DNA from: an uncultured Acidobacteriota bacterium
GTDB lineage: Bacteria > Acidobacteriota > Terriglobia > Terriglobales > Acidobacteriaceae
DNA length: 64,000 nucleotides
Assembly (NCBI GenBank): GCA_963742165.1
Contig: CAVUKX010000017.1
Span: forward strand, 110,698-174,697
Reading direction: 5' to 3'
A model generated the notes under the pieces. It saw only the letters and a program-made list of their open reading frames with translations. It searched no databases and had not been told where the DNA came from. Of the stretch, positions 3,623 to 56,463 are shown piece by piece; the stretch's first letter is position 1, and the number at the start of each line of letters is the position of its first letter. Position numbers and translations under genes: made by a program.

Positions 3623-3713
3623 TTCGAACTCCTTCCCCACCAGCCGGGCCACCCGACACTCCGGGAAACCGGTACGGCCTAGGCTGCTCTCCAGCGAATC
3701 GTGGCCGTTTGGA

Positions 3714-6005: not shown

Positions 6006-6053
6006 TGCTGCTCCGTGATCTTCGTATTCGCCCCGCTCGAAGGCGGGCGCCCA

Positions 6054-8524: not shown

Positions 8525-9646
8525 TTATTCGAGCGGGCGCGCGAGAGTCTCCGCATGCCCGCTTGCGGCACGAACTGCGGTCACTACTTTTTGCTGATCC
8601 TCTGCGCTGAGGTAGGGATGCATGGGCAGGCTTACCACATGATCGGCGGCGGCTTCGGATAACGGGAAGCTACCGCGTCCGCAGCCGGGTTTGGCAAAGG
8701 CCGGCTGCAGATGCAAAGGGACGGGATAGTGAACCGCGGTGGGAATGCCGTCGGCCTGCAGTCGCTTCACGAAGTTCTCCCGGTCTTCCACCTGAATGGT
8801 GTACTGCGCGTAAACGCTGGTGTTGTGCGGTTCCACGTAGGGCGTCCGCACCAGGTCGCGCAACTGTTCGCTATAGTTGGCGCCGAGTTCCGCGCGCAGC
8901 CTCACTTCTTCATCGAAGGCATCGAGTTTGGCCAGTAAAATCGCGGCCTGCAGCGTATCGAGGCGTCCGTTGATGCCGACCAGCGGATGATGGTAGCGGC
9001 GGTCCTGGCCGTGCACGCGGATTTGCCGCATGCGGGTCGCCAGCGCTTCGTCGTTGCTGAAGCAGGCGCCGCCATCGCCATAGGCACCCAAGGGTTTCGA
9101 GGGAAAAAAGCTGGTGCAGCCGATGGTCGAGAGGTTGCAGGACTGGCGTCCCTTGTAGGTGGCGCCGAAGCTCTGCGCGGCGTCTTCGATCACCGCGATG
9201 CCGCGCGCGGCGGCCGTGGCGTTGATGGCATCCATCTCCGCGCACTGGCCGTAAAGCGACACCGCCATGATGGCCTTGGTGCGCGGCGTGATGGCCGCCG
9301 CGAGCAGCGCGGGATCGAGATTGTAGGTGCGCGGGTCAATATCCACGAAGACCGGCGTGGCTCCCAGCAAGGCAATGGTTTCCACGGTGGCGACAAAGGT
9401 GAACGGCGTAGTGACCACCTCGTCGCCTGCGCCCACACCCAGCGCCATCAGCGCGATCAGCAGCGCATCCGTGCCGCTGGAGCAGGCCACGCAGTGTTGG
9501 CTGCCGGTGCGCGCCGCCAGCCTCTCTTCCAGCTCCGTTACCTCCGGCCCCAGGATGAACTGGCCATGGGCAAGCACGGCGCGCATGCGCCGGTCGATCT
9601 CCGCTTGCAGCTTTGCGTACTGCGCCTTCAGGTCGATGAATTCCAC
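8525..9646 (-). CDS. DegT/DnrJ/EryC1-family PLP aminotransferase
   Basis: 373 aa: MEFIDLKAQYAKLQAEIDRRM...GPEVTELEERLAARTGSQHCVACSSGTDALLIALMALGVGAGDEVVTTPFTFVATVE. Full-length family signature. Confidence 0.85.
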   Translation of the reverse strand: MEFIDLKAQYAKLQAEIDRRMRAVLAHGQFILGPEVTELEERLAARTGSQHCVACSSGTDALLIALMALGVGAGDEVVTTPFTFVATVETIALLGATPVFVDIDPRTYNLDPALLAAAITPRTKAIMAVSLYGQCAEMDAINATAAARGIAVIEDAAQSFGATYKGRQSCNLSTIGCTSFFPSKPLGAYGDGGACFSNDEALATRMRQIRVHGQDRRYHHPLVGINGRLDTLQAAILLAKLDAFDEEVRLRAELGANYSEQLRDLVRTPYVEPHNTSVYAQYTIQVEDRENFVKRLQADGIPTAVHYPVPLHLQPAFAKPGCGRGSFPLSEAAADHVVSLPMHPYLSAEDQQKVVTAVRAASGHAETLARPLE

Positions 9647-9673
9647 GCCAGCTCACGCTTTCTTGGTACGTTC

Positions 9674-10732
<1,059 letters not shown>

Positions 10733-10898
10733 TTGTCGATACGCGCATCGCGCCGCGAAAGCTTCCCGCGCCCACAGCGATGCTCACCTTCCTCCGGTCG
10801 CCCGGTAATCTCTCACTCCACAGGATAGAACGAGCCTAAAGCGGATTGCGCTGCGCTGCAAGTTCTGCGTGCGCAAATTGCACCATGCATGAGGAAAC

Positions 10899-11537
10899 CT
10901 AGGCTTCTACGACCTGTTCGGCGGCGTGGCGGGCGCGCGAGCGCTTGCGCCGGTACCAGCCGTAGGCGGCCATTACGACGGAGCCGGCGGCAATGAGGCT
11001 GAGCGACCACTTGGCCGAGCGGGTAAAGATCGCCATCCAGTCGAAAGCGCGCATGGAGAGCACGCCCGCCAACAGCATGATGAGAATCCAGAGCAGAGAG
11101 CCGATGCTGTTGTACAGATGGAAGCGCGAGCGGGGCAGGTGCGCGGCTCCCGCCAGCGGCGGTGCTAGATGCGCCACACCGGGAATCCACTTGGCCCAGA
11201 GCAGGGTGATGCCGCGGAAGCGGTCGAGCCCGGCATAGGCTTTTTCTTCCAGCGAATCCGGCACGAAGGAGATGCGGCACATGGCGGCGATGACGGAGCG
11301 GCCCTTCCAGCGGCCGAGTTCGTACCACATGGCATCGCCCAGCAGGCAGGGCACGGCGGTGGCAAACAGGACCAGCCAGAACTGCATGGGGTTGACGGCC
11401 ACCATGGCTCCGGCGGCCAGCAGCAGCGGGGAGATGAAGACCGGCAATCCGAGCCTCTCGCCCAAGGTGACCAAGAACATCCATAACGCGCCGTGACGGG
11501 CCAGTAAGGTGGTATCCGGCGGTAACAACATCATCAA
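10899..11537 (-). CDS. DedA/VTT-domain membrane protein (paralogue 1)
   Basis: 212 aa multi-TM protein (TTG 11537 or ATG 11534 start). Clearly paralogous to the N-terminal 200 aa of the next gene: HGALWMFLVTLGERLGLP.., WYELGRWKG.., LLWAKW.PG..H.A.PLAGAA. Confidence 0.75.
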   Translation of the reverse strand: MMMLLPPDTTLLARHGALWMFLVTLGERLGLPVFISPLLLAAGAMVAVNPMQFWLVLFATAVPCLLGDAMWYELGRWKGRSVIAAMCRISFVPDSLEEKAYAGLDRFRGITLLWAKWIPGVAHLAPPLAGAAHLPRSRFHLYNSIGSLLWILIMLLAGVLSMRAFDWMAIFTRSAKWSLSLIAAGSVVMAAYGWYRRKRSRARHAAEQVVEA

Positions 11538-11895
11538 CTTGAATCTCCTGCGGCGGGCGGCCGTTCAGACAGGGAACGGCCCACGCACGGAAGGGACGCA
11601 CTGACTTTGCGGAGGGCCATTCGCTCCGCGAAAGCTGCGTCCCTGCTCTCTCTAGTGTACCGGGAAATCGGACTGGGATCGCCAGGGTTCACTCTGAGGC
11701 CTGAGATTTTGTTACTTACTACCCTCGCGGGTGGAGATGGTACTGCCTGGCGCGTTTTCCGGCAAAAGTTGCAGACCATCACGGACAGTCCGAGCCGAAA
11801 AGACTCTGGAGCGTCATCGGAGAGCTGAACGGTGCAGGGATTCCTCGCGTTGCTCGGAATGACAGCCTAGGAGCAGGAGCAACTCGGGAACGGCA

Positions 11896-12886
11896 CTAGC
11901 TCGCCTGATCCAGTACGCGGGGGTCGCCGTGGTCGTCGAAGATGCGGTCGACGGGAAAGCCCAATTTCTCCCATCCGGCCAAGCCGCCCGCGAGGGGACG
12001 GACGTGCTTGACGCCGAGTGAGCGCAGCTGTTTGGCCACCATCACCGACGTGGCTTCATTCGGGACAGGTGCAGTAGACCACGATCTCGCGGTTGCCGGG
12101 CAGTTCCGCACGGCGCGCGGCGATCTCATTGGGCGCGATGCGCAGGGCGTGGGGCAGGGTGCGGGGAGCAGCCAGGAAATCGAGCGGATGGCGGAGATCG
12201 ACGATGAGCGGCGCATGGCCGGAGACCACCTGGCGATACACCTCCTCGGGCGAGATGCGCGCCATGCGCAACTCCCGGAGGAACTGCCGCCGCTGCCAGT
12301 AGCTGCGCGCGGCCAGGGCTACGGAGGCCACCAGCGCCAGCGCCACTGCCCAGCGCGCCGTGATGGCAAAGACTCCCAGCCAGTCGATGGTGAGCACGGA
12401 GAGGTAGCCCGCCGCCAGCAGCGCCGCCAGCCAGGCGATGGAGCCCGCGCCATTGCAGAGCTGAAAGCGCGGGCGGGAAATCCGCGCCGCACCGGCCAGC
12501 GGCACGGCAAAGTGCGAGATGCCGGGAAGCCACTTGGCCCACAGGAGCGAGCCTCCCGTATGGCGGGCCAGCGCCAGTTCGGTGCGGCGCACGCAGGAGT
12601 CGGGCTGAAAGGAGATGCGGCAGAGCAGGCCGAGCAGCTGGGAGCCTTTCCAGCGGCCCAACTCGTACCAGGCGGTGTCTCCCGCCAGACAGGCGATGGA
12701 GGTGACCAGCAGCAGGACTCCGAAGTGCAGCTTGCCCATGGCCGCCAGCGCCCCGGCCGCAACCAGCAGCGGAGTGACGAAGAGCGGCAGCCCCAGGCGC
12801 TCTCCGAGCGTGGCGAGGAACATCCACAGGGTTCCGTGGCGGACTATCAAATGAAAATCGGCGTGCATGATGCGAATTCCCTTCAC
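11896..12886 (-). pseudogene. DedA/VTT domain fused to a C-terminal rhodanese domain; frame broken by a 1-nt insertion in the rhodanese active-site loop
   Basis: ORF 12056..12886 ends ...REIVVYCTCPE*. ORF 11896..12216 continues in another frame as PNEATSVMVAKQLRSLGVKHVRPLAGGLAGWEKLGFPV. Removing one base from the C run at 12062..12064 restores YCTCPNEATS, a typical rhodanese loop. Confidence 0.75.
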
Positions 12887-13145
12887 CGCGGCAGCGATGG
12901 GCGGCCTGCACGCGGTGGGCTGATTTCAAGCTGAGCGATTGGGGCGAACAATTTACTGAGTTTTAATTGATGCCCGGACGCAGGTGCGGGGTTCACCGGT
13001 GGGCGTAAAAGGCTGTGCGGCTCGCCGGAGACACTGTTCGCCCCTGGCCTGTTGGAAATCGAGCGCAGGCCGCTGCGTTCCCCTCGCAGCACCCGGCGGG
13101 TTAAGATGGTAGGCGCTTGGGGAAACCTTCCCGCAAAGGGTTTGC

Positions 13146-13700
13146 ATGATCCCGCTGCTCGTATTTGTTGCCATTCTGGTGGTGATCGGCCTGATTGTGG
13201 CCGGCATATATAACGGACTGGTGCAGCTCAGGGTGCGCGCCGACAATTCCTGGTCCGATATCGACATTCAACTGAAGCGGCGCCACGACCTGATCCCGAA
13301 CCTGGTGGAGACCGTGAAGGGCTACGCCGCGCACGAGAAGGGCACCTTTGAAGACGTGGCCAAATACCGCTCGGCGGCGATGGCGGCGACCTCGGCTGCC
13401 GACCGGGCGCAGGCCGAAGGGCAGCTGACCCAGGCGCTGCGCGGGCTGCTGGCCGTGGCCGAGGCCTATCCCGAGTTGAAGGCCAACACGCAGTTCCAGG
13501 CGCTGCAGCAATCGCTCTCCGAGTTGGAAGATGCGCTGCAGAATTCGCGGCGTTACTACAATGCCGTGGTGCGCGACCTGAACACCAAGATCCAGTCATT
13601 CCCCAGCAATATCATCGCAGGAATGTTCAACTTCCAGCAGCGACCGTTCTTCGAGATCGCCGATCCGGCGGAACGCGCCGTGCCGAGCGTCAAGTTCTAA
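13146..13700 (+). CDS. lemA: LemA family protein
   Basis: 184 aa. N-terminal TM helix, then YNGLVQLRVRADNSWSDIDIQLKRRHDLIPNLVETVKGYAAHEK and ...RRYYNAVVRDLNTKIQSFPSNIIAGMF, the LemA pattern. Confidence 0.85.
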   Translation: MIPLLVFVAILVVIGLIVAGIYNGLVQLRVRADNSWSDIDIQLKRRHDLIPNLVETVKGYAAHEKGTFEDVAKYRSAAMAATSAADRAQAEGQLTQALRGLLAVAEAYPELKANTQFQALQQSLSELEDALQNSRRYYNAVVRDLNTKIQSFPSNIIAGMFNFQQRPFFEIADPAERAVPSVKF

Positions 13701-13717
13701 ACGCGAGGCGTATCTTT

Positions 13718-15553
13718 ATGCGAGGCGTAACCAAGGAGCCCATGAATCATCGCCTGACGCCTTCCAACCCCAGCCTGTTGCGCTGGGGTTTCTTGCTGGC
13801 CGCGCTGCTTTTGCTGGCCACGCCCGGCTTTGGCCGCTCGTGGTCGATTGCCCGCTTCGATGCCCGCTACACCGTGGGCGACGACGGCTCGGTGCTGGTG
13901 GAGGAGGAGATTCATCCCTCGTTCGATGGCACCTACCAGGGCATTGAGCGCTCGATTCCGGTGGAGTATCCCGGGCCGGACGGGACCGACTACAAACTTT
14001 TTGTGAAGGTGGACTCGGTCACCGACGAGAGCGGCGAGAAGATCCGCTTCGAGCAGAGCAGCCGCGCCGAGCGCACCGCCGACGGCAGAGTCAACCAGTT
14101 CCTGGTGCTCAGGATTTATGCCGGCGGCACGGACACCGAACGCACGGTACGGATCAGCTACCGGGCGGCGAACGCGGTGCGGTTTTTTGCCGACCACGAC
14201 GAGTTCTACTGGAACGTGACCGGGCTGGACACGAAGGTGCCGACCGAAGAGGCGTCGGCGTTTGTCGCGCTGCCCAGCGGAGCGGCGGGACAAAGCGGAC
14301 AGATCAAGGCGCAGGCCTTTACCGGCGTTTACGGCACGAGGGAGAAGGAAGCCACCAGCACGGTTGACGGCAGCAACGTGACGTTTGAGACCTCGGCTCC
14401 GCTCGCAGCCCGCAACGGGCTCACCATCGACATCTACATTCCCAAGGGCATACTGACCGAGCCCTCGTGGTTCACGCGCAACGTGGTGTGGTTCGTGGGA
14501 GGCAATCCGGGGGCGCTGCTGCCGGTGTGGGCCTTTGCCGTGATGTTCGGCCTATGGTGGTGGAAGGGACGTAATCCCGATCCGGGCCTATCGGTGGCAC
14601 CGATGTATGAGCCGCCCAAGGGGCTGACGCCGGCCGAGGCCGGGACCTTGCTGGAAGACGCGGTGGAAGCCCGCGACATTACATCGACGGTGATCGATCT
14701 TGCGGTGAAGGGATACATCAAGATCATCGAGAACAACGACAAGGTGCTGTTCATCACGCACCGGGACTACATTCTGCGGCTGATGAAGCCGCGGCACGAG
14801 TGGCAGGATCTGGCGGCGCACGAACTCGAGGTGCTCAACAATATCTTCCCCGAGGTGACGGCCGAGGAGACGACGCTGTCGAGCCTGAAGGAGCGCTTCT
14901 ACATTGCGCTGCCCTCGATCCGCCAGGAGATCATGGCCGCGCTCAACGGCAAGAACCTGTACTCGACCGATCCGGACTCGGCCAAAGGGCTGGCGCTGGT
15001 GGGAGTGCTGATCATCGTGCTGCCGTTTTTGTGGCTGCAGATGACGGGCCGCATCCAGCTGTTCAACTCGCCGACTGTGCTGGCGGCGGGCGCGTTGCTG
15101 AGTATAGCGATCGTGATGCTGTTCGGACGCAAACTGGCGGCCAAGACGGTGCGCGGGGCTCGCGCGCGGGTGGAGTGCCTGGGCTTCAAGGAGTTCATGA
15201 CGCGGGTGGATGGCGACCGCATCAAGCGGATGCCGCCGGACACCTTTGAAAAATTCCTTCCGTACGCGATGGCGTTCGGGGTGGAGCACCACTGGGCCAA
15301 GGCGTTCGAGGGACTCCTGACCGAGCCGCCCTCGTGGTACGTCGGCTCGGGCTACGGAACTCCGGGGATGATGTGGACTCCGCTGCTGTTCGCCAGCTCG
15401 ATGAACACGTTCACCACCTCGGCGTACCAGTCGTTTTCGGCCGCGCCGCAGGCCACCTCCAGCGGCTCCGGCTTTGGCGGCGGCGGTGGTTTCGACGGCG
15501 GAGGCGGATTCTCCGGCGGCGGCTTTGGCGGCGGCGGCACGGATGCGTTTTAG
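13718..15553 (+). CDS. DUF2207-domain membrane protein with Gly-rich C-terminus
   Basis: 611 aa. Signal/TM, large extracytoplasmic domain, TM cluster, and GSGFGGGGGFDGGGGFSGGGFGGGG tail. Sits 17 nt after lemA, the usual LemA/DUF2207 pairing. Confidence 0.7.
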   Translation: MRGVTKEPMNHRLTPSNPSLLRWGFLLAALLLLATPGFGRSWSIARFDARYTVGDDGSVLVEEEIHPSFDGTYQGIERSIPVEYPGPDGTDYKLFVKVDSVTDESGEKIRFEQSSRAERTADGRVNQFLVLRIYAGGTDTERTVRISYRAANAVRFFADHDEFYWNVTGLDTKVPTEEASAFVALPSGAAGQSGQIKAQAFTGVYGTREKEATSTVDGSNVTFETSAPLAARNGLTIDIYIPKGILTEPSWFTRNVVWFVGGNPGALLPVWAFAVMFGLWWWKGRNPDPGLSVAPMYEPPKGLTPAEAGTLLEDAVEARDITSTVIDLAVKGYIKIIENNDKVLFITHRDYILRLMKPRHEWQDLAAHELEVLNNIFPEVTAEETTLSSLKERFYIALPSIRQEIMAALNGKNLYSTDPDSAKGLALVGVLIIVLPFLWLQMTGRIQLFNSPTVLAAGALLSIAIVMLFGRKLAAKTVRGARARVECLGFKEFMTRVDGDRIKRMPPDTFEKFLPYAMAFGVEHHWAKAFEGLLTEPPSWYVGSGYGTPGMMWTPLLFASSMNTFTTSAYQSFSAAPQATSSGSGFGGGGGFDGGGGFSGGGFGGGGTDAF

Positions 15554-15710
15554 CCCCGAAGCGTTTTAGCCGGGAGGTCGCGCTGCGGGGCTTGAGACCG
15601 AGGAGAAGTGTAAGCCTTCGCAGGGCCAATGGCGCTGAACATTTCTACATCGAATTCGTCGCTCGAACATCTCTTACTGCATAGCGATTCGATGCTTTTG
15701 AGGTGTGGCG

Positions 15711-16199
15711 ATGAGTCCGGAACGCACCGACGATTCTTTCAGCGATTCCGATGACGCAAAGCGCGGTGCGCAGGATTCCGGGGAAGTGCCCGCACACCAC
15801 GGTTTCACCATCCAAACGGGCGGGCGCAAAGCAATTGCAGACACTGCCGAACGCATTGGCAGAGCCGCCGGCACCGCCCAACGGCAAGTGCGCCGAGGCA
15901 TGGAACTGGTGCGTCCGGCCGCATCCACGGGCGGCGGAACGCCTTCCTACACCGGCGCCATGCCGGACGCGGAGGCCAAGGCGCGCCCCGGCGACGCGCA
16001 TCGCATGGGTGGACTCAGCGAATTTGCGGCAGAGCGCCTGCTGCTGCTGCGCCAGCAGTTGCAGGATGCGGTCTCACGCTCGCGCCGGGCCACGCGGCGC
16101 ATGGTGACCGAACATCCGGGGCCAACCTTGGCCGCCCTGGCGGGACTCTGCGTTGCGCTCGGCGTCGGGCTTCGTGTGAGCAGGCCCGGCCGCCGGTAA
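15711..16199 (+). CDS. Small C-terminally membrane-anchored protein, possibly DUF883/ElaB/YqjD-like
   Basis: ATG 15711 preceded by GAGGTG. Hydrophilic body and a C-terminal anchor EHPGPTLAALAGLCVALGVGLRVSRPGRR resembling the ElaB/YqjD tail. High-GC context, so coding status is less certain. Confidence 0.45.
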   Translation: MSPERTDDSFSDSDDAKRGAQDSGEVPAHHGFTIQTGGRKAIADTAERIGRAAGTAQRQVRRGMELVRPAASTGGGTPSYTGAMPDAEAKARPGDAHRMGGLSEFAAERLLLLRQQLQDAVSRSRRATRRMVTEHPGPTLAALAGLCVALGVGLRVSRPGRR

Positions 16200-16347
16200 C
16201 GCAGAACAACGAGGATTGGGGTCTGCCAGCGGAATCCGCTCCGGCCTCTCTGCCCGGATAAAGCGTTGATTCTCTAGTGTCGCGTCCAAATTCCCTACTA
16301 CCACAAAGATTCCCATTCATGACATAATCCAACTTAACAAGGTTACT

Positions 16348-16719
16348 TTGGTCATTTTGCAGGTTGATTCGGGAGCTAATGTGTCCGATATTCGCACCAG
16401 CCGACGATTTCCCGTGCATCTCCCCCTCAAGGTATTGGGCGAGCATGGCACACCGATAGGTCAAACGGAAAACATCAGCGCTGCCGGGGTTTATCTGTGG
16501 CTCGACGACGGCAGCCTGGAAATTGGCGCCTCCACGGAATTTGAGATTACGATTCCGGGCGAGACCGTGGGCGCTGTCGGCGACGTTCGCCTGCACTGCC
16601 AGGGACGCGTGGTGCGCTGCGACCACGACGCGGAACAGGGCCGCTCGGGCGTTGCCTGCGTGATCGACAGCTACGAGATTTTGCGCGGCGACCAAGCCGC
16701 CGGGGCTGGAGAAGAATAG
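16348..16719 (+). CDS. PilZ-domain (c-di-GMP-binding type) protein
   Basis: RTSRRF (RxxxR) followed about 25 aa later by NISAAG (D/NxSxxG). The likely true start is GTG 16381 (GGGAG 6 nt upstream). Stop TAG 16717..16719 abuts the next ATG. Confidence 0.7.
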   Translation: MVILQVDSGANVSDIRTSRRFPVHLPLKVLGEHGTPIGQTENISAAGVYLWLDDGSLEIGASTEFEITIPGETVGAVGDVRLHCQGRVVRCDHDAEQGRSGVACVIDSYEILRGDQAAGAGEE

Positions 16720-47276: not shown

Positions 47277-48893
47277 TTACTTCTTGACCCGGCGCTGGTG
47301 GGTGGAGGGGATCTTCATGTCTTCGCGGTATTTTGCCACGGTGCGGCGCGTCACCTGGATGCCCTGGCCCTGCAGGATGCGGGTCAGCTGCTCATCGGTG
47401 AGCGGGCGGGCGGAATCCTCCTCCTCGATCAGCTTCTTGACCCGGCGCTTGAGGATCAGCAGAGAAGTTGCGCCGCCCTCCGGGCCATTGACGCTCTCGC
47501 TGAAGAAATAGCGCAGTTCGAAGACACCTTGCGGGGTGACCGCATATTTGCTGGCCACGGCGCGGCTCACCGTGGAAGGATGCACGCCGATCTCCTCGGC
47601 CACTTCCTTGATCATCATCGGCTTGAGGAAGTCGATGCCGAAATCGAGGAACTCGTGCTGGCGGCCGATGATGGCGTAGCAGGTCTTCAGAATCGTCTGC
47701 TTGCGCTGCTCGATGTTCTTGATGAGCTGCATGGCGCTCTTGTAGCGCTCCTTGACGTAGGTGCGCACGTCCTTCTCGTTGCCTTCGCGGCTCAGCATTT
47801 TTTTGTAGGCCGGGTTGAGGCGCAGCTGCGGCATGTCGTCGTCGTTCATCACCACCAGGTACTCGTCGCCCTGCTTGATGATGGCCACGTCGGGCTCGAT
47901 GAGGCGGGTTTCGCCGACGTTGTAGCGCAGGCCGGGCTTGGGGTCCAGGGTGCGGATGAGGGCCATGCAGCGCTCCAGCCGCTCCAAAGGCTTGCCCATG
48001 GCGCGGCCAATCTCGCGCATCTGCTTGTTCTGCAGCAGGTGGAGATGCTTGTCCACGATCACCGTGGCGTCAGCCAGCAGCTCCGGCATGTCAGGCTCGC
48101 CGCCGTGCTCGTCGTGGGCACGCACCAGGTCTTTGAGCTGGGCCAGGAGGCACTCGCGCAGATCGCGCGCTCCCACGCCCACCGGGTCCATCTGCCGCAC
48201 CACATCCAGCGCCTCGTGCAGCGCGTCGCGGCCAAAGAGCGCCTTGGAGGGCAGCTCCGGCTTGGGCACCAGCTTGGGACGCTCCAGCTCCGCGCCTTCC
48301 GCCGAGTCCACCTCCAGCACCGGTGCCGCGGCTGCTTCGTGCGCGGCCAGAAAACCTGCGCCCTGCTCCAGCAGTTCCTCGTCGCTGGAGAGCAGATACC
48401 CGTCATCGCCCAGATTGCCGATGATCAGCTCGGCCGCCGCCAGCACGTCGTCTTTGACGTGCATCGCGCCCAGCTGCCACATGAGGTGGTCGGTGAGGGT
48501 GGTGGGTTTGGAGAGGAAGTTTTCGAAGGAGGGCTTTTCGATCGACTCCAGCTCGCTGTTGCTGCGGTAGCCGGGGTCGAGGTAATCATTGAAAAAGGAG
48601 CCGAAATCGACCTCTTCGAAGGGATCGCGCTCCTCGGGAGTGGTCTTGGGCTCTTCTACCGTGGCGGCGCTGCTGTCGCGCTCGCGCTGCTCTTCCTGGG
48701 CCGCAATCTGGTCGATGCTCGGCACCGGATCCTCATACAAGTCCAGAACCGGATTTTCCACCATCTCTTCGGTGATCATGTCCTGCAGCTCAAGCTTGTT
48801 GAGCGCGAGCACACTGACCATCTGCACCAGTCCGGGAGTCAGGATCTGGCGTTGCGTAACCTTCAAATTCAGCTTTGTCGACAGTGATACCAT
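47277..48893 (-). CDS. rpoN: RNA polymerase sigma-54 factor
   Basis: N-terminal LKVTQRQILTPGLVQMVSVL, HTH ..IKEVAEEIGVHPSTVSRAV.., and RpoN box RRTVAKYRE. Confidence 0.95.
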   Translation of the reverse strand: MVSLSTKLNLKVTQRQILTPGLVQMVSVLALNKLELQDMITEEMVENPVLDLYEDPVPSIDQIAAQEEQRERDSSAATVEEPKTTPEERDPFEEVDFGSFFNDYLDPGYRSNSELESIEKPSFENFLSKPTTLTDHLMWQLGAMHVKDDVLAAAELIIGNLGDDGYLLSSDEELLEQGAGFLAAHEAAAAPVLEVDSAEGAELERPKLVPKPELPSKALFGRDALHEALDVVRQMDPVGVGARDLRECLLAQLKDLVRAHDEHGGEPDMPELLADATVIVDKHLHLLQNKQMREIGRAMGKPLERLERCMALIRTLDPKPGLRYNVGETRLIEPDVAIIKQGDEYLVVMNDDDMPQLRLNPAYKKMLSREGNEKDVRTYVKERYKSAMQLIKNIEQRKQTILKTCYAIIGRQHEFLDFGIDFLKPMMIKEVAEEIGVHPSTVSRAVASKYAVTPQGVFELRYFFSESVNGPEGGATSLLILKRRVKKLIEEEDSARPLTDEQLTRILQGQGIQVTRRTVAKYREDMKIPSTHQRRVKK

Positions 48894-49036
48894 GCACCAA
48901 CGGCGAAGGGGAAGTTTCCCAAGGCTGATTCTAAACCAGAAAGTTCAGTTGCATACGGAGTTCGGCAATCAAAATGCTACAAAAATAACTTAGGCCGGCG
49001 TGGGTAGCTGGTTCGCCACTCCCCGGAGCTCTGCCG

Positions 49037-49110
49037 TTATACCAGAGTAAAGCTCCCGCCAAGGTAGACGCGCTTCACTTCGGGGTCGTTGCCGGTTGCC
49101 CGGGGGTGGC
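49037..49110 (-). pseudogene. Orphan duplicate of the lptB 3' end (last ~18 codons plus stop)
   Basis: Minus strand reads ..[17 protein letters not shown], versus intact LptB ..[17 protein letters not shown] at 55735..55809. By hand alignment, 53 of 58 nt are identical before an indel. Confidence 0.8.
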
Positions 49111-49162
49111 TGAGTGATTCTGAGGCAACGATTCCGGTGAAATGCTGCGCCGGCGGCTCTGG

Positions 49163-49195
49163 TTCGGGCTAGTGAGCTGATTGGTGAATTGCGCC
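49163..49195. repeat. Island-specific repeat, GGGATAGTGAGCTA-core, type 1
   Basis: TTCGGGCTAGTGAGCTGATTGGTGAATTGCGCC, compared with TTCGGGATAGTGAGCTACTTGGCGATTTATCGCC at 49470. Confidence 0.6.
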
Positions 49196-49468
49196 AGCGG
49201 AGCTTTTTCGAGGAACACCCCCTCCCCCTATATTTCCCGGCAAAAATTTGAAAAAAAAGGAGTTAGGCGGCGAAAACGGGGCACAAAGGCGAAGAAAGCT
49301 TCCCTGATTTCAGGATAGCAAAAAGGGAGGGGCAAACCCTCAGTGGGAAGCGGATCTTTATGTAGCTTGGAGTCAGATGGTTGCGAGGAATTGCAAAGAA
49401 AAATCGCTTGACAGAGTTGTGCTACGAGGCCCAGTGCGTTCTGCATCGCAGGGAACCGCCCAGCTAAG

Positions 49469-49503
49469 CTTCGGGATAGTGAGCTACTTGGCGATTTATC
49501 GCC
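49469..49503. repeat. Island-specific repeat, type 1 (core plus GGCGAT-TT-ATCGCC hairpin)
   Basis: CTTCGGGATAGTGAGCTACTTGGCGATTTATCGCC. Overlaps the stop codon of the 49496..49822 gene. It is the inverted partner of 49883..49917. Confidence 0.8.
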
Positions 49504-49822
49504 CACTATTCATTGAGAGCTTAAAGGCAGCTACCTTGGCTGCCGTAAGTCTGAGGCCGCGGAGAACGCACCAAAAGCATACCGAATAGAGCAAAGCGGG
49601 AATCCATAGAACGATTGCATAGGTTATGACCTGATTTAGCATTCGGTTATGCAGTTCTGGGGCGTAATCCAACAACCAGGCCCAAGGCATTCCAAACAAA
49701 AAGGCGTAACCCGCGACGTGTTTACGGTGCAGGTGCAGACGGTCGGCGAGGTTCATTAGCACGGTTAGAACAGCCGCAACAGCAAAAGGTAATGTCAGTA
49801 ATATCCGCTTGCACCAAGTCAT
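49496..49822 (-). CDS. Small (108 aa) three-TM membrane protein, hypothetical
   Basis: Trimmed to ATG 49822: MTWCKRILLTLPFAVAAVLTVLMNL...YAFLFGMPWAWLL...VITYAIVLWIPALLYSVCFWCVL. AT-richer than the flanks by eye. Confidence 0.5.
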   Translation of the reverse strand: MTWCKRILLTLPFAVAAVLTVLMNLADRLHLHRKHVAGYAFLFGMPWAWLLDYAPELHNRMLNQVITYAIVLWIPALLYSVCFWCVLRGLRLTAAKVAAFKLSMNSGR

Positions 49823-49882
49823 AGTTGTCTGCACTTTACGCCAAATAGCGGCCAAGTTCCACGAATTGTTGGACGACAACAG

Positions 49883-49917
49883 GCCAAGTAACTCACTATC
49901 CCCGAAGCGGAACCGCG
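49883..49917. repeat. Island-specific repeat, type 2 (inverted core plus GCGGAACCGCG)
   Basis: GCCAAGTAACTCACTATCCCCGAAGCGGAACCGCG. Its reverse complement matches 49469..49492 at about 25 of 27 positions. Confidence 0.8.
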
Positions 49918-49944
49918 CGGGCCACGCCTTCCGCGACGGCGGGG

Positions 49945-49975
49945 GCATATTTGCCCTCTGTTGGCAAATGTGGGG
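49945..49975. repeat. REP-like palindrome, family A variant
   Basis: GCATATTTGCC-CTCTGTT-GGCAAATGTGGGG. Translates on the minus strand as PHICQQRANM. Confidence 0.6.
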
Positions 49976-50099
49976 ACGCAGGCCGCCTACGAAAGCCCCA
50001 GAGTTGGATGCGCCAACGCTGATTGGATAAGAACGAAGGCTTCGGCGGACCCGGTATTCTTTGGTTGAGGACCAAGAAGCTGGGTCAGGAGAAGCCTTC

Positions 50100-50990
50100 A
50101 TGCAGATTATAGGGTGTGATTTCCATCCCAGTTGGCAACAAGTAGCGGTTTTTGATCCCTCGACAGGTGAGATTGTGGAACTCAAGCTGGTCAACGGCAA
50201 CGGCGAGGCGGAGCGATTTTACCGTTCTCTGCCTCGGCCATCGCTGATTGGCTTGGAGAGTTGTGGCAACAGTCAGTGGTTTGTGGAGTTGTTGGAAAAG
50301 CTGGGGCACCTGGTGTGGATCGGCGATGCAGCGCAGATTCGGGCCAGTTATGTGCGCAAGCAGAAGACCGACAAGCGCGACGCGGCGCACATTCTGACGC
50401 TTCTGCGCGAGGGTCGGTTTCCTCGGTTGTGGGCTCCGGATGCGGCGGTGCGCGATCTGCGGCAGTTGTTGATTCACCGGCACAAGCTGGTGGAGATTCG
50501 GACGCGGGTGAAAAATGGTTTGCAGCATCTGGCGATGAATCGCGGCATGCAGAAGAAGGCCAGACTGTGGAGCGAGGCGGGTCAGATGGCGTTTGGCGCA
50601 CTTCCCTTGGAAGGTTGGGCGGCGTGCCGGAGAGAAGATCTGCAGCGGTTGCGGGCGATGCTCGATGTCCAGGTTGGCAAGCTCGACGAGGCTGCGGAAC
50701 GCGCCGCCTATCACGACGAGCAGGCGCGACTGCTGATGACGCAACCAGGGGTGGGTCCGATCACCTCGTTGGCCTTTGTGCTGACCATTGGCGAGGTTGC
50801 GCGGTTCAAGCGCGGCAAGCAGGTGGCCAGCTATCTGGGACTGATTCCGCGCGAACACAGTTCGGGCGGCAAACAGCGGCTCGGCGCGATCAGCAAGCAG
50901 GGCAACGGGTTTGCGCGCATGTTGCTGGTGGAAGCGGCGCAGACAGCGTGCCGGTTGGACGAGGGATTTCGCAAGCAGTATCAGCACCGC
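50100..50990 (+). mobile_element. IS110-family DEDD recombinase/transposase gene, 3'-truncated
   Basis: MQIIGCDFH.., IGLESCGNS, KTDKRDAAHIL (DEDD-type N-domain). QPGVGPITSLAFV..IGEVARF.., YLGLIPREHSSGGK (Ser motif). Family similarity stops at ..FRKQYQHR (50990), and the ORF then reads antisense through the next gene. Confidence 0.8.
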
Positions 50991-51014
50991 TGGGCTGAGC
51001 ATGTACAGGATGGC

Positions 51015-51704
51015 TCAAGCTCTCGGAAGGGCCAAAATCTTGTATGTACTCAAGACAAGCAGGACGAACGAGACCACCACGACTGCGACCCGCGGCCCCA
51101 AAGCCTCGAAACGTTGGCTCAGCGCAGTCAGGAGCAGAACGGTAGCCAACAGGACCGTGATTCTCACGTAGTCGTCGCCGGTCTCCCGCGTGCTTACGCC
51201 CTTCTGGAACTGGCTTTTGGACTCCGCTGCGAGTGCCGCAGACTGTTGGCTGTTTGCGTTTGCGTACTCCGCCATGAAATCGGGGCCGGGAGGAGCATTG
51301 AGATTGTGAATGGGGTCGAGTTTCATCCAGGCGGCGAACGCAGTGGCATATTCGGGCCGGAATCGGTGCTGGTAGAATGCGGCCAACTTGTCTCTGCCGG
51401 CCAGCGTTGCGGAAACCCAGGCATTGAAGGTCGTGATGTCGTAAAGGCGATCATGGCCCGCCAGCGTCGCCTTCTCCTGCGACGCCACCATGGTGATGGA
51501 CGCAAGGTTGTAGTGCTCGGCCGAAAGGGCGTCCCAGCGCGCCGCCTGGTAGCCGCTCCACGCGGTAGCGATCGCGACAACCGCGAGCACAACAGCCTCT
51601 GCGATCTCAACCCATTTCACCCGGCGGTCGGTTGGTGATGAATGATGCTCGCCCTGCTCGTGAATCTTGTGAGCAAACTCAACGTTCGACGTTGCCTCTG
51701 GCAT
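51015..51704 (-). CDS. DUF4337-like membrane protein
   Basis: N-terminal His-rich HKIHEQGEHHSSP, TM segment WVEIAEAVVLAVVAIATAWSGYQAARW, long helical region, C-terminal TM pair. Family call is from memory. Confidence 0.5.
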   Translation of the reverse strand: MPEATSNVEFAHKIHEQGEHHSSPTDRRVKWVEIAEAVVLAVVAIATAWSGYQAARWDALSAEHYNLASITMVASQEKATLAGHDRLYDITTFNAWVSATLAGRDKLAAFYQHRFRPEYATAFAAWMKLDPIHNLNAPPGPDFMAEYANANSQQSAALAAESKSQFQKGVSTRETGDDYVRITVLLATVLLLTALSQRFEALGPRVAVVVVSFVLLVLSTYKILALPRA

Positions 51705-52168
51705 CCGTATGCCTCCCGCGGCGAATCGGAAGTTGGGAGCTCCGGTCCGGAATGCCGCTCAGTCTCCTACAATAGGCGACTTTTCCGCGCCGCTTATTCC
51801 GTTTCGGCTCGAACCATCCAGTTGGAGCGGCGCTTGCTTGTTCAGCCGCTCCTGGCTCTTCTGGCTTTTCCCGATAAGCCATGCCTCGCTACTTGATCTT
51901 CGTGCGTGTGTCGGTGTGGCGCACGATATTGAATTCCATGCGAAATGCTACGAAGTATGCATTTAGGAGGCAACTGTCAAAGCTGACAGCCTTAGATTGC
52001 ACTCCTTCGATTACCCGCCCTCGGCGAGATGCTTGCCTGCGGCCTGTATATTTTGACACTGTCCAGCCCCGAAGCGGACGGCGCAGGAAACGTGCTCTGA
52101 AAACCTGCATCTAAGTAATCAGTTCAACCGAGCTGTTAACTGAAAGTTTTGCAAAATGGAGAAACCAC

Positions 52169-53932
52169 ATGTCTTTGGGTCGATTCCTTCGATTTGTACT
52201 CCCGTTGGCGGTCGCACTCTGCGTACCGTCGTTTTTGTTAGCCCAGACTGATTCTGTTCCCAAGGTACAGATTTTCGGCGGCTATTCGTGGTATCACCCT
52301 GGCGGCTCCGTCTCGACTACGGACGTTACCACTGCCGATATCTCGCGTGTCGCGGCCGTCCCGGCAGTGTCGAGTTCCGATCCGAGCATACCGGATTTCA
52401 ACGCAGGCTGGGGGGCGCAGGTCACCTACAACTTCAACAATTGGTTGGGAGCGACCGTGGACGGCAGCGGCCACTACAACCATGGCAGCATTTACACGGC
52501 TGCGGGCGGACCGAAGTTCACCTATCGCAGGGGGCACTTTGCGCCCTTCGGCGAGGTACTAGCCGGTGTCGCGTTTATTGGGCCGAATTCAGCTCCCAGC
52601 ACCAACGAATTTGCGTTCCTGGCCGGCGGCGGACTCGATTACCAGGTGACTCGGCACTTCTCGATTCGGCCCGTGCAGGCGGACTACGTCCTGACGCAAT
52701 ATAACGAGTTTTCTGCTCCAGGCGTTCGGAACTACCTAAGTGGAGTTCGTCTGCAGGCGGGCCTGGTACTCAACTTCGGATATCCGAAGGTAGTTGAGGT
52801 AGGCGCGAACTGCACCGCGGTGCCATCGGCGGTGGACGCCGGCGGGCCGGTCACGATCACCTTGACGCCGTCGGGCTTTTCGCCCAAGCGCACTCTGAGC
52901 TACTCCTATTCCAGCACCGGCGGCAAGATCTCCGGAAACACGATTGACACCACGGGCCTGAACGCGGGCACCTATACGGTGAGCGCCAAGGTTGCGGACA
53001 GCGGCAGTGGCAAGAATCAGCGGACCGCAGGTTGCCAGGTGAGCTTCATGGTGAACCCGATGAATCCGCCGACTCTGTCCGTTTCAGCGAGCCCGAGTTC
53101 GGTGGACGCGGGCCAAAGCTCGACAATTACGGCCAGCGGCAGCAGCCCGGATAACCGTCCGCTCAGCTACAGCTGCACATCGACTGCCGGAAATTTGAGC
53201 GGAGCCGGCACGCACTACACCCTGGACACCACCGGCGTTCAGCCGGCAAGCAGCATTACCGTAAATTGCACGGTGACCGACGACCGCAGCCTGACCGCAG
53301 CGGCGAGCGCCGGGGTGACGATCAACGCTGCTGCAGCAGTGGTTGCACCACCTCCCCCGCCGCAGACCGAAATCGAGGAATACCTGAAGATTCGGAGTAT
53401 CTACTTTGCGACAGACAAGCCTTCGGTCAAGAAGCCCGACGGCGGCCTGATGCCTAGCCAGGAAGCTACTCTCGCCAAACTCGCAAGCAGTTTCAAGACG
53501 TATCTCCAAAGCAAGCCGGATGCCACCCTGACCTTGGAAGGCCATGCCGACCAGCGTGGTTCCGTGGCATACAATCAGGCACTGTCCGAGCGGCGTGTTG
53601 AAAGCACCAAGCACCTGCTGGTTGAGCAGGGCGTTCCGGAAGCCAGCATCCAGACCAAGGCGTACGGTAAGCAACATAACCTCACCGAAGCCGAAGTTAA
53701 AAATGCGGTGGAACAGAACCCCGAGGTGAGCGCTGAAGACAGGGCGAAATTGCTGAAGAAGATCAAAGTAATCCAATGGGCAAGCAACCGCCGCGTGGAC
53801 GTTACTCTGAACATCCCTGGCAAGAGCCCTCAGGAGTCAGTCCAGACGTACCCCTTTAACGCTGAGGATTCCATGGTTCTGCTGTCGCCAGCTCCTCCGT
53901 CGAAAAAGGCAGCAGCCACGAAAAAGAAATAG
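52169..53932 (+). CDS. Three-module outer-membrane protein: N-terminal beta-barrel, two Ig-like repeats, C-terminal OmpA domain
   Basis: Signal peptide. Barrel-like strands (KVQIFGGYSWYHP...GVRLQAGLVLNF). Two repeats (CTAVPSAVDAGGPVTITLTPSG.. / VSASPSSVDAGQSSTITASGS..). OmpA domain (IYFATDKP...LEGHADQRGSVAYNQALSERR..NRRVDV). Confidence 0.8.
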   Translation: MSLGRFLRFVLPLAVALCVPSFLLAQTDSVPKVQIFGGYSWYHPGGSVSTTDVTTADISRVAAVPAVSSSDPSIPDFNAGWGAQVTYNFNNWLGATVDGSGHYNHGSIYTAAGGPKFTYRRGHFAPFGEVLAGVAFIGPNSAPSTNEFAFLAGGGLDYQVTRHFSIRPVQADYVLTQYNEFSAPGVRNYLSGVRLQAGLVLNFGYPKVVEVGANCTAVPSAVDAGGPVTITLTPSGFSPKRTLSYSYSSTGGKISGNTIDTTGLNAGTYTVSAKVADSGSGKNQRTAGCQVSFMVNPMNPPTLSVSASPSSVDAGQSSTITASGSSPDNRPLSYSCTSTAGNLSGAGTHYTLDTTGVQPASSITVNCTVTDDRSLTAAASAGVTINAAAAVVAPPPPPQTEIEEYLKIRSIYFATDKPSVKKPDGGLMPSQEATLAKLASSFKTYLQSKPDATLTLEGHADQRGSVAYNQALSERRVESTKHLLVEQGVPEASIQTKAYGKQHNLTEAEVKNAVEQNPEVSAEDRAKLLKKIKVIQWASNRRVDVTLNIPGKSPQESVQTYPFNAEDSMVLLSPAPPSKKAAATKKK

Positions 53933-53953
53933 CTGAGCTGCTGTTTTCAAGGA

Positions 53954-53985
53954 GTGGCCCGTCGCTTCGCGGCGGGCCACTTTTT
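53954..53985 (+). terminator. Rho-independent terminator
   Basis: GTGGCCCGTCGC-TTCG-CGGCGGGCCAC followed by TTTTT, 22 nt after the stop codon. Confidence 0.8.
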
Positions 53986-54348
53986 GCGTATGGAGAGTGG
54001 CGCCGGCTCAAGATGTAGTGGCTACTTCTCGCCACGTAGCTTCAAATCGGGGATGTTTCGGAGCGGCCGCCTAGCCAGAAACACTATTCTTTCCATTGTC
54101 ACTTTTTGCCAGTTCTCACGGACGGGGCACTACGATTCGGCTACTTTTCCGAATGTGACCAGTTGGGTTGGTCGGTCGGCTGGAAACACAGCCGAGTTCG
54201 TTCCTCGCAGGATCCCTCGACACTCCGCGATGCGTTCGCAAAGAAGCGTTACGGTTGGCGCCGATTATGGGCGAGTTACAGGGCATACGGAAATTGTCGA
54301 CAGTAGGATAGTTGTCGATAACAGGGCTTTTAGCTCAGTATCCCGCAG

Positions 54349-54385
54349 CTCTGGATAGTGCGTTACATGGCGATTTATCGCCATG
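54349..54385. repeat. Island-specific repeat, type 1
   Basis: CTCTGGATAGTGCGTTACATGGCGATTTATCGCCATG, including the 9-bp-arm palindrome CATGGCGAT-TT-ATCGCCATG. A degenerate inverted core (TAGCTCAGTATCCC) lies just upstream at 54331..54344. Confidence 0.75.
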
Positions 54386-54569
54386 TATTTTCACATCTGG
54401 GTTATTTCCGAGTGGCCGACAAACCTGGAATCATGGCGTGGCGCGCGACATAATCCTGCACGCCAATGTCAGAAGTTAGATTCACCAGTGCCCAGATGTA
54501 TTCCAGCACCTTAGAGAAAATGCGAGATCAGGCCGGAGGGCCTCCTGCATAGCAGAGGGCCGACCATTA

Positions 54570-54953
54570 TCAGTTGCAGCCTGAATTGTACTTCCCCTTC
54601 GCGCAGGTAGTGCCCTTGGGGCCTGTCGCCACACCCTTGCCATTCTTGGTCTTGGCTTCGCTACCACCGGTGGTGTGAGTCGTCTTTACCCCGTTCTCAT
54701 TCGTCTGCGAAACAGCACCTCTGCCTGTGTTTGGGTTGTATTTCGCTTCGCCGCCGGTGTTGGTCTGAACCGTCTTTACCCCGTACTCATTTGTTTGGGA
54801 GACAGCAGCTTTGCCCGTGTTTGGGTTGTATGCGGCGCCACTCTGACCATTGTTGCAAATGGTCTCACCACGCAGGTTTTTGTAGCAATCGTCCGCATAC
54901 AGGGCCGAAGCGAACAACATGCATGCCATCATCGATAAAACTTTGATTTTCAT
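54570..54953 (-). CDS. Small secreted protein with an internal tandem repeat and terminal Cys pairs
   Basis: Signal peptide MKIKVLSMMACMLFASALYA. Repeat YNPNTG(K/R)(A/G)AVSQTNE(Y/N)GVKT..T(N/T)GG(E/S)EAK occurs twice. Cys at DDCYKNLRGETIC and TTCAKGKYNSGCN. Confidence 0.6.
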   Translation of the reverse strand: MKIKVLSMMACMLFASALYADDCYKNLRGETICNNGQSGAAYNPNTGKAAVSQTNEYGVKTVQTNTGGEAKYNPNTGRGAVSQTNENGVKTTHTTGGSEAKTKNGKGVATGPKGTTCAKGKYNSGCN

Positions 54954-55058
54954 TTTTCCTGCCTATTCTGTGTTCGCCATTATTCTCCGCTCTTTTCAGT
55001 TCAGGTGCGCTACTCCGGTACTTTGTCGATCTAATCCCAATGGGACACTTCGGAACCA

Positions 55059-55364
55059 TTAATGGATCATCCCGCATACGATCATTTTGTCGACGACTTG
55101 GTCGGCGGCAATGCTAACGAATTCGTGGCGCATTTCCGTATCGGTGCGCAGCAGTTCCAAGAGTTTCTGCTCTGCCGGTAACATGGGCATGTTCGTGTGC
55201 TGGGCTTGTTGCTGCCTCAACTGCTCGCAACTGGACGTCTGGTAATGCTGGGCCACCTTGGTGGCCACAGCATCCAGCATCGGGTGCTGGCCCTGCTGTG
55301 CAGCGGCGACAGTGACGTAGAGCAGCGCGAGCGCCGCTGCTACCAGATACGAATGCTTCTTCAT
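55059..55364 (-). CDS. Small secreted hypothetical protein
   Basis: Signal peptide MKKHSYLVAALALLYVTVAAAQQ, helical Gln-rich body, 101 aa. Confidence 0.5.
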   Translation of the reverse strand: MKKHSYLVAAALALLYVTVAAAQQGQHPMLDAVATKVAQHYQTSSCEQLRQQQAQHTNMPMLPAEQKLLELLRTDTEMRHEFVSIAADQVVDKMIVCGMIH

Positions 55365-55645
55365 GTTCTTCTCCCTTTCTCGTGTTCGAGATGTATAACC
55401 GTCCCATTCAAGGCTCAGAATGAGGAGGTGTTTGCATTACCGGTATCCGCGAACGATAGTCCTCAGGGTTCCAAGCATCGTGTCGTACCGGTAACTGCCA
55501 AAATTGGCAAATCCGGCGTGGAGTATGGTGGCATAGTGTTTCGGCCGCAACTGTCTAAACTGACAGGCTATCCAACGAACGACTCTCTCACTCCTGGATT
55601 GGGTCCGCTTGCCACCGGTTGTCCCCGGCTAATGGGCAATCTAAA

Positions 55646-55666
55646 AGCTATCCCAAAGGGATAGCT
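55646..55666 (-). terminator. Candidate terminator downstream of lptB
   Basis: Perfect 9-bp stem AGCTATCCC / GGGATAGCT with a 3-nt loop. On the minus strand it is followed by TTTAG. Lies about 70 nt after the lptB stop. Confidence 0.4.
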
Positions 55667-55672
55667 GGAAGT

Positions 55673-55711
55673 AACAGGGCAAGGCACTCACGATCCCAAG
55701 GCGGAACCGCG
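55673..55711. repeat. Island-specific repeat, type 2
   Basis: AACAGGGCAAGGCACTCACGATCCCAAGGCGGAACCGCG. Collinear with 49878..49917 (CAGGCCAAGTAACTCACTATCCCCGAAGCGGAACCGCG). Confidence 0.7.
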
Positions 55712-55734
55712 TGCAGTGTGCCTTCGTAGCGCGG

Positions 55735-56463
55735 TTATACCAGCGTAAAGCTCTCGCCCAGGTAAACGCGCTTGACTTCGGGGTCGTTGCCGAGTTGCTC
55801 GGGCGTGCCGGTGCGGAAGATGCGGCCTTCGTTGATGATGTAGGCGCGGTCCACCACCGAGAGCGTTTCGCGGACGTTGTGGTCGGTGATGAGGACTCCG
55901 ATGCCGCTGTCCTTGAGGGCGAAGATGATCTTCTGCAGGTCGAGCACGGCGATGGGATCGATGCCGCTGAACGGCTCGTCAAGCAGAATGAAGCTGGGAC
56001 TGATGCAGAGGGCGCGGGCGATTTCCACCCGGCGGCGTTCGCCTCCGCTGAGCGCATAGCCCTTGTTCTTGCGGATGTGGGCCAGGCCAAGCTGGTCGAG
56101 CAGGGCTTCCATCTTGGTGCGGCGCTCCTCCCAGTTGGAGCTTTGCGTCTCCAGCACGGCCAGGATGTTCTCCTCCACGCTGAGCTTGCGGAAGACCGAG
56201 GCCTCCTGGGGAAGGTAGCTGATGCCATGCTGCCGGGCGCGCAGATACATGGGAACGTCGGTGATCTCGGTGTTGCCGATCATGACGCGTCCGCTGTCGG
56301 GCGGGATAAGCCCGACGATCATGTAGAAGCTGGTGGTCTTGCCCGCGCCATTCGGCCCCAGCAGCCCCACCACCTCGCCCTGGTGCACCGTGAGCGAGAC
56401 TCCGTTGACCACGCGGCGGCCGCGATACGATTTGGCGAGCTCTTCAGTGGATAGCGTCTGCAT
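55735..56463 (-). CDS. lptB: LPS export ABC transporter ATP-binding protein
   Basis: [82 protein letters not shown]. Confidence 0.9.

Follow-up and report, generated by a model that had tools for sequence, protein, structure and literature searches.

Are the short inverted repeats that bracket small bacterial genes the ends of exchangeable units, dispersed palindromes that have landed beside those genes, or signals in their transcripts? The question is raised by an island of about 6.7 kb (~49035-55735) between rpoN and lptB, both identified through Pfam, in a 64,000-nucleotide stretch of the genome of an uncultured Acidobacteriota bacterium (GCA_963742165.1, contig CAVUKX010000017.1, positions 110,698 to 174,697). 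By the window we mean this whole stretch, and coordinates refer to it unless another contig or locus is named. The source genome, G000, is a draft of 21 contigs (C1 and onwards) with 97% completeness; genomes of relatives are labelled G001 and so on, individual loci carry L-numbers, and X1, X2, X4 and X6 are metagenome runs. An initial annotation of the window had noticed a core sequence bracketing two small-gene cassettes and had proposed three explanations: terminal inverted repeats of passenger-carrying elements like miniature inverted-repeat transposable elements (MITEs), recombination sites like the attC sites of integrons, possibly the target class of the neighbouring IS110-type recombinase, or untranslated region (UTR) elements that pair in the transcripts. 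The observation is real and is partly confirmed here, and its interpretation is partly supported. The repeat is a family of two subtypes, A and B, which pair with each other across genes. We tentatively favour, as possible rather than established, the reading that A and B are heterotypic sites which, in this genus, bound exchangeable gene cassettes or serve for their recombination.

A repeat family of one Acidobacteriota genus

A profile of the family, trained on 83 copies (52 A and 31 B) and searched with nhmmer, gave six matches in the window at E <= 3e-4 (49155+, 49467+, 49911-, 54344+, 54348- and 55708-), every one within the island, and the best match in the rest of the window had E = 2.5. 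An exact 23-mer with up to three mismatches matched at 49470 (+) and 49883 (-), against an expectation of 0.00 from shuffles, and a repeat search grouped plus-strand copies at 49471, 54350 and 49164, of which the second is 83% and the third only 60% identical to the first, taken as the reference.

The first cassette is bounded at its 3' end by an A-type copy (49467..49510, +; E = 2.2e-12), which folds with an 8-nt bulge and holds the TAA stop of the enclosed gene inside its loop, and at its 5' end by the inverted B-type partner with its outer flank (49866..49925, -; E = 1.9e-8), which ends 44 nt upstream of the ATG. In the repeat search these arms were 33 nt long (49473-49505 and 49870-49902) with a complementarity of 82%, and the pair does enclose, as first described, an open reading frame (ORF) for a 108-aa predicted membrane protein (49496..49822, -). 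This protein has no Pfam family, is a singleton in G000 and is found in 1 of 60 other genera; at the DNA level, no homologue of the gene part of this cassette was found in the genus. The second cassette lies between an A-type copy at its 3' boundary (54344..54388, +; E = 2.9e-8) and a B-type copy at its 5' boundary (55659..55715, -; E = 9.6e-8), the latter 20 nt from the lptB stop and ending ~295 nt upstream of the ATG of a 101-aa gene. It holds two small genes, of 127 aa and 101 aa (54570..55364, -), with signal-peptide-like N-termini and no Pfam family, both singletons in G000, of which the 127-aa protein is found in 1 of 60 other genera. The positions of the arms relative to the genes are broadly those given in the initial annotation, the upstream copies ending 44 and ~295 nt before an ATG and the downstream copy overlapping a stop codon, and GCGGAACCGCG does follow both inverted copies (49883 and 55673).

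Other details had to be revised. A hairpin had been assigned to each of the core copies at 49163, 49469 and 54349; the first of these is weak and has no clean GGCGAT/ATCGCC hairpin. This outer A-type copy (A'; 49155..49203, +; E = 2.9e-4; 60% identical to the reference copy) stands in tandem with the A copy at 49467, an arrangement that recurs on contigs C15, C1, C9 and C3. Five copies had been counted, and the sixth is a B-type copy (54305..54348, -; E = 3.8e-7) which, as read from the junction sequence, lies head to head with the A copy at 54344. A degenerate B-head relic upstream of a 229-aa gene (52030..52095, -; core ~52058-52086) had also been passed over; it is 81% similar to 49891-49911, aligns with the family and falls below the profile threshold.

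The family had been called specific to the island, which is true inside the window only. G000 carries 34 copies on 13 of its 21 contigs (nhmmer, E <= 0.01) and a shuffled genome none, so the similarity survives the shuffled background against which the initial annotation had wished to see it scored. A degenerate 19-mer with up to two mismatches matched 28 times in G000 and once as a reversed-pattern control; of the 21 other genomes of the genus 20 contain it, with counts running from 0 in G013 to 27 in G001, whereas three other genera of the family lack it, and 8 of 16 sister-family genomes, a set that takes in the unpublished G029, G035 and G036, had one or two matches, near the control level. 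A broad pattern scan of genome contigs gave 74 matches, roughly the number expected by chance when a 19-mer has four two-fold positions, and the only informative part is their clustering in metagenome-assembled genomes of Acidobacteriota. Viral contigs gave only two exact pattern matches, and an Rfam scan of 48800-56000 at E <= 1 returned no family. The repeat is a real family across one Acidobacteriota genus, far above chance.

Pairing of A with B across diverse genes

Aligned copies split into the two subtypes over a site of about 45 nt. The core of A reads ...CTTGGCGAT... and that of B ...CTTGGCCTG..., with the consensus TTCGGGATAGTGAG-NNNN-CTTGGCGATT... for A and GGGATAGTGAG-NNNN-CTTGGCCTGTT.TCG.CA.C.A.C for B, where NNNN is variable. 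The main difference between them is the three bases after CTTGGC, and the tail (C.A.C) is common to both.

The rule by which they combine is strict. Among 89 distinct copies in genomes, with convergent pairs defined as lying 100-4500 nt apart, there were 22 such pairs, and all 21 that could be fully typed consisted of one A and one B; in the remaining pair the typing rule left a B-like arm unclassified. An independent metagenome set, of 82 loci picked with an A-type pattern and holding 139 matches, added 19 convergent pairs, 16 of 16 typed ones being A+B. The 37 of 37 reached with both sets may be set against a chance of about 0.47 per pair, A being about 0.6 of copies. The unit therefore has the layout B-head > ... 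gene ... < A-head, and adjacent cassettes abut head to head as B·A junctions, of which the metagenome set held 12, with A+B in 9 of the 9 typed; the two GGG heads at these junctions are separated by 5-8 nt. Tandem arrays occur, L132 having at least three cassettes in a row. In the metagenome set a B copy is rarely unpaired: where there was room around the copy (at least 2.5 kb), 11 of 13 B copies had a convergent A. For the 51 A copies with room the counts were 13 with a convergent B, one with a convergent untyped copy, nine with a tandem second A and 28 with nothing of the family within 3 kb.

These solitary A copies favour an explanation that we consider improbable, in which A and B are intergenic palindromes like repetitive extragenic palindromic (REP) sequences and bacterial interspersed mosaic elements (BIMEs), spreading independently, with a role, if any, in mRNA stability or chromosome structure, and with the bracketing of genes a by-product of variable-region spacers. 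The family shares with REPs, BIMEs and the REP doublets known as REPINs its dispersed, imperfect intergenic palindromes, its two subtypes and its inverted doublets, the doublets and paired subtypes being reminiscent of the Y and Z REPs of BIMEs; repeats are also known targets of IS110-family elements (PMC11187229), and for the A copy at 49466-49512 the predicted fold is better than for its shuffled versions (z = -2.6). Independent landings, however, would not be expected to give an A and a B across one gene every time, with B nearly never alone, or to leave partners spanning a gene that varies with them, and wherever the arms are absent the gene is absent too. No stem covariation was seen, the A/T position in the head not covarying with the tail. 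The copy number is low (34 in G000, and between 0 and 27 motif matches per genome elsewhere in the genus), and none of the five Y1 genes in G000, the type of the REP-associated tyrosine transposases (RAYTs), is flanked by A or B.

Paired copies elsewhere also flank small ORFs: the pairs enclose 0.2-4 kb and typically one small gene. Cargo is extremely varied: 41 cassette interiors were mutually unrelated by blastn and tblastx at 1e-8, and 26 of 36 cargo ORFs compared with Pfam had no family. The ten positives comprise an M1 peptidase, DUF3592, a transglycosylase, a sulfatase, LprI, RDD, Tgi2PP, I-set, DUF6988 and SDR; Tgi2PP is an immunity domain of the type VI secretion system and LprI a lysozyme-inhibitor domain, each found in one cargo. 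No recombinase or transposase was present among the 36, and the transposase genes that do lie inside pairs are parts of inserted elements of the IS110 family of insertion sequences (IS). Some short units, of 178 nt on C11 and 238 nt in L232, contain no ORF that reaches 60 aa.

Genes within pairs show a preferred orientation, the main ORF having B upstream in 18 of 22 genome pairs and 11 of 15 metagenome pairs (typed, with an ORF of at least 60 aa), or 29 of 37 together. This bias could be explained if the arms were mRNA signals, B lying in the 5' leader or near the promoter and the reverse of A at the 3' end, where the two could pair as a duplex that is cut by RNase III or protects the ends. 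The short distance from B to the ATG of the 108-aa gene, the stop codon in the hairpin loop of A, and the cassettes of the island being co-oriented with lptB and rpoN would all suit such a role. We regard it nonetheless as very unlikely. Cognate arms were no more similar to each other than shuffled ones (permutation p = 0.77 for the whole arm and p = 0.51 for the variable tetranucleotide), which leaves the pairing of UTRs put forward in the initial annotation without support; the B copy folds no better than shuffled sequence, and a promoter and terminator scan at the arms gave no sigma-70-like promoter or terminator save one hairpin at 55646-55666. The gene is reversed in 8 of the 37 cassettes, and pairing in transcripts leaves both the replacement of interiors and the head-to-head arrays unexplained. 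For genes beside an unpaired A copy, the 3' end faced A in 39 cases and the 5' end in 21, a count made with crude ORF calling and not relied on.

Replacement of interiors, selfish elements and the question of an enzyme

Comparison of orthologous loci showed that gene and arms come and go together. At the C9 locus (22.4-23.3 kb) 77-147 nt in G016, G015, G001 and G021 stand where G000 has ~960 nt with a cassette. At the C1 locus (109.3-110.6 kb) empty sites of 91-195 nt occur in three relatives, and two others have a different gene without arms; the empty sites are too diverged to define exact unit ends. Interiors are also replaced in place. Between G000 and G003 the C9 locus has flanks and both arms that are 87-90% identical around an unrelated interior of ~600 nt, similarity stopping within both arms, at the end of CCTGTTATCG in B and of GGCGATTTA in A. 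In a second replacement, G009 (L141) against L030, the flanks are 89-92% identical and the interior again unrelated, with breakpoints after GTGAG in B and, on the A side, outside the arm with 97 extra nt.

B is moreover a fixed target of selfish elements. On C18 a B copy is interrupted by an IS110-family element at precisely ...CTTGGCC | CTGTT..., and the two halves rejoin into a normal B. The same IS110-family end abuts other B heads: one in L037 (G021), one in L043 (G001) and one where contig C10 begins. In all there are three independent insertions after ...CTTGGCC, each at a different locus and in a different genome. A group II intron (RVT_1 + GIIM) in L128 splits another B copy 1-2 nt from the IS110 point. 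The proposal of attC-like sites targeted by an IS110 element stands as to the targeting and fails as to any integrase nearby, and the element concerned is the one on C18, not the truncated IS110 gene of the window, which lies outside the B copy and interrupts no copy. The fixed IS110 and group II intron point in B offers a natural test case for RNA-guided elements that choose repeated "safe" targets.

One way to account for gain and loss is that the arms are the left and right inverted repeats of non-autonomous cassettes, either mobile insertion cassettes (MICs) or MITEs with cargo, moved in trans to new sites by a putative transposase encoded elsewhere. Each unit has two slightly different ends, as IS elements have left and right inverted repeats (IRL and IRR), its gene and arms are present or absent jointly, short units without an ORF exist, and passenger genes lacking a transposase between two inverted repeats have been described in Xanthomonas and Bacillus (PMC4337579, PMC6199540). 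We nevertheless think this unlikely, and the MITE-like ends of the initial annotation with it. No direct repeats or target-site duplication were seen outside the heads of copies; the inverted symmetry runs on into the bases there, and the copies lose their similarity by degrees with no sharp terminus. No interior is shared among the 41, so nothing points to recent copying; the 36 cargo ORFs include no transposase, no transposase with these ends was seen, and cognate arms are no more alike than non-cognate ones. Unlike MICs, A and B lack a cognate IS or transposon and target duplications, and their cargo is not repeated.

Our preference for exchangeable cassettes with heterotypic sites draws on the site family itself, its strict A+B pairing and diverse cargo, the joint presence or absence of gene and arms, the replaced interiors and the targeting by selfish elements. 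The core of the initial idea, that the repeats are ends of passenger-carrying units and no chance similarity, is supported: the pair is always A+B, gene and arms vary together and interiors are swapped. Recombination in or at the arms would replace the interior with another cassette bearing compatible arms; each subtype would pair with its own kind, and the three-base difference after CTTGGC would stop the two ends from recombining with each other. This would be the same logic as the two-site cassette exchange proposed for Acinetobacter dif modules. We infer that the exchange is site-specific instead of ordinary homologous recombination on conserved arms, and that a recombinase acting in trans exists.

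A number of points weigh against this. None of the 41 cassettes was found at two different loci, so that no movement of a given cassette was seen. The breakpoints lie at the arms with no single fixed position, and homologous recombination or separate events would fit them equally well. Conservation is poor in the inner half of A, which does not fit a classical core site with two arms, and with 28 of 51 copies lacking a family partner A also acts as a free dispersed repeat. As for an enzyme, none of the 11 Phage_integrase matches in G000 is within 15 kb of any of the 34 copies and there was no recombinase among 32 ORFs in or around five array loci; only the copy on C10 has serine recombinases nearby, 4-6 kb away. 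It also should be considered that the genomes are related, and the pair and copy counts are therefore not independent events.

Several other candidates were tried and set aside. The tyrosine recombinase in L128, which is frameshifted and lies ~45 nt from a B-like copy once the intron is removed, has no tblastx match in G000 at 1e-5. L128 (G002:C5) is mobile-rich over positions 1-16500, with an ISL3-like transposase, two group II introns and a DDE transposase among its A and B copies. An association with RAYTs or the related TIRYTs was dropped, as each of the five G000 Y1_Tnp genes has another inverted repeat of its own, and the same arrangement is seen in G004. A phage-type promoter in the reversed head, suggested by an 8-nt string known from promoters of phage single-subunit RNA polymerases, was dropped. 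The start would be C-rich; the corresponding polymerase family PF00940 has no match in G000, which is weak evidence as control genomes also gave none. By eye, the arms show no spacing that would make a convincing sigma-54 or sigma-70 promoter, and the promoter scan gave none there.

Few systems that move single genes about in cassette form are known in bacteria. The main ones are integrons, dif modules and shufflon-like systems, and each of these was found in Proteobacteria or gut Bacteroidales. We give a lower, rather doubtful standing to the stronger proposal that A and B constitute a new chromosomal cassette platform, in which heterospecific sites let a putative recombinase swap single-gene cassettes without excision or inversion. 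It would be just as speculative to call such a platform a natural counterpart of recombinase-mediated cassette exchange with a sequence unrelated to attC or dif. If true, the platform would supply a large reservoir of orphan proteins, secreted ones and membrane proteins alike, and a sequence-defined site pair around several dozen unrelated orphan genes would add a cassette system to a major soil phylum, here represented by uncultured Acidobacteriota of peat and soil. The two-site grammar is searchable in other lineages and gives a handle for finding its recombinase.

By analogy the system appears closest to Acinetobacter dif modules and integron cassettes. The modules of Acinetobacter plasmids lie in arrays between inversely oriented pdif (XerC/XerD) sites (PMC13141974, PMC6449649, PMC10132070). 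Comparison of related replicons shows single modules replaced in place, exchange needs matching spacers, and one dedicated IS family targets the sites (PMC13141974, PMC10132070); the exchange proposed for them would involve both the left and the right site pair. A and B likewise delimit small accessory-gene units between short inverted sites, with arrays, replacement in place at two orthologous loci and targeting by an IS. They differ in that the consensus has no XerC arm, 6-bp spacer and XerD arm and bears no resemblance to the sites in Table 1 of PMC13141974; in being ~45 nt long, of two subtypes, chromosomal and from Acidobacteriota; and in that neighbouring cassettes have two abutting sites and not one shared. 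A scan of the draft G000 with a dif-like regular expression found no canonical site.

With integrons, including clusters of attC sites lacking integron-integrases (CALINs; PMC3001079, PMC3053210), the shared features are mostly single small orphan ORFs, extreme cargo diversity, co-oriented arrays and an imperfect palindrome between cassettes. The A/B junction is hit by an IS110/IS1111-family element and a group II intron, and integron attC sites are targets of IS110/IS1111-family elements and group IIC introns (PMC3001079, PMC11187229). Unlike integrons, no integron integrase is near A/B copies, a solitary cassette has one arm at each end and not a whole site at its 3' end, and the sites are conserved in sequence where attC is conserved only in structure. 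On reading the A/B consensus, the attC core motif was not recognised. The rAID-1 arrays of orphan immunity genes in Bacteroidales have a conserved XerD-family recombinase heading each array (bioRxiv 10.1101/471110); our loci resemble them in their arrays of small genes with repetitive intergenic sequence and in the single Tgi2PP and LprI cargoes, and differ in that no recombinase was seen at the head of A/B loci and that only 2 of 36 cargoes have a recognisable immunity or inhibitor domain.

The island between lptB and rpoN

The island is flanked by a 62-77-nt direct repeat of the lptB 3' end: the functional end on the right (55731..55798, -) pairs with a remnant copy on the left (49033..49108, -), to which it is 88-90% identical. 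The copy adjoining rpoN retains the native downstream spacer, and the island has no integrase. In 18 of 19 relatives with both genes on the locus, lptB directly adjoins the rpoN spacer, and one metagenome contig joins 48993 to 55736 and represents a strain without the island. The exception is G001, whose spacer is occupied by an unrelated IS, ~890 nt long and ending in terminal inverted repeats (L080, G001:C6, 589-1480), and since this is a different IS in the same place the lptB-rpoN spacer is a recurrent insertion site. Variants of the window, read from Logan contigs, included one of 70 nt without 54298-54367, that is without the B copy and the A head of the junction, in X1 and X6, and the reference form in X2 and X4. 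There was no microhomology at the joint, and no strand-switch joint across the arms was reported in the metagenome contigs. One contig with the 70-nt variant also has a 30-nt insertion after 54255 that starts with a string like the A core.

Between A' and A lies a separate dispersed element of ~200 nt (49204..49418), with copies 69-91% identical in G000 and 12 of 21 other genomes of the genus. There are several copies per genome, between tandem A copies at four G000 loci, and they carry terminator-like hairpins on the strand of the neighbouring cassette gene. Beyond the first cassette is a copy of a REP family distinct from A and B (49934..50021), an 85-nt repeat with more than 30 copies in the genome; the same arms flank in inverted orientation (C3 510278-510932) a Y1_Tnp gene for a 173-aa RAYT-like transposase (C3 510328-510849), and relatives hold very many copies. 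Next comes the IS110-family transposase gene (50100..51000, +; Pfam DEDD_Tnp_IS110 and Transposase_20). Taken to 51020, it loses similarity to its family after about residue 300, and it is truncated on its 3' side, where it meets the 3' end of a 229-aa gene on the other strand (51015..51704, -), a cargo-like ORF without a Pfam family.

In the gene for the 127-aa secreted protein a 90-nt (30-aa) unit is repeated twice in tandem at 80% identity (54652-54831). A 31-nt repeat with the palindromic core CTGTC.AA.CTGACAG occurs at 51962-51992 and 55539-55569 (81% identical), ~100-130 nt inside the B heads and upstream of the 229-aa and 101-aa genes, and may be a shared operator. A gene between the two cassettes encodes an OmpA/PKD-domain protein (52169..53932; Pfam OmpA) in the opposite orientation (+). 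Its 3' 1.18 kb (52832-54014) is 97% identical to paralogues at C2 209744-210926 and C16 77373-78532 and its 5' part is much more diverged from both, a pattern that suggests recent gene conversion or domain swapping.

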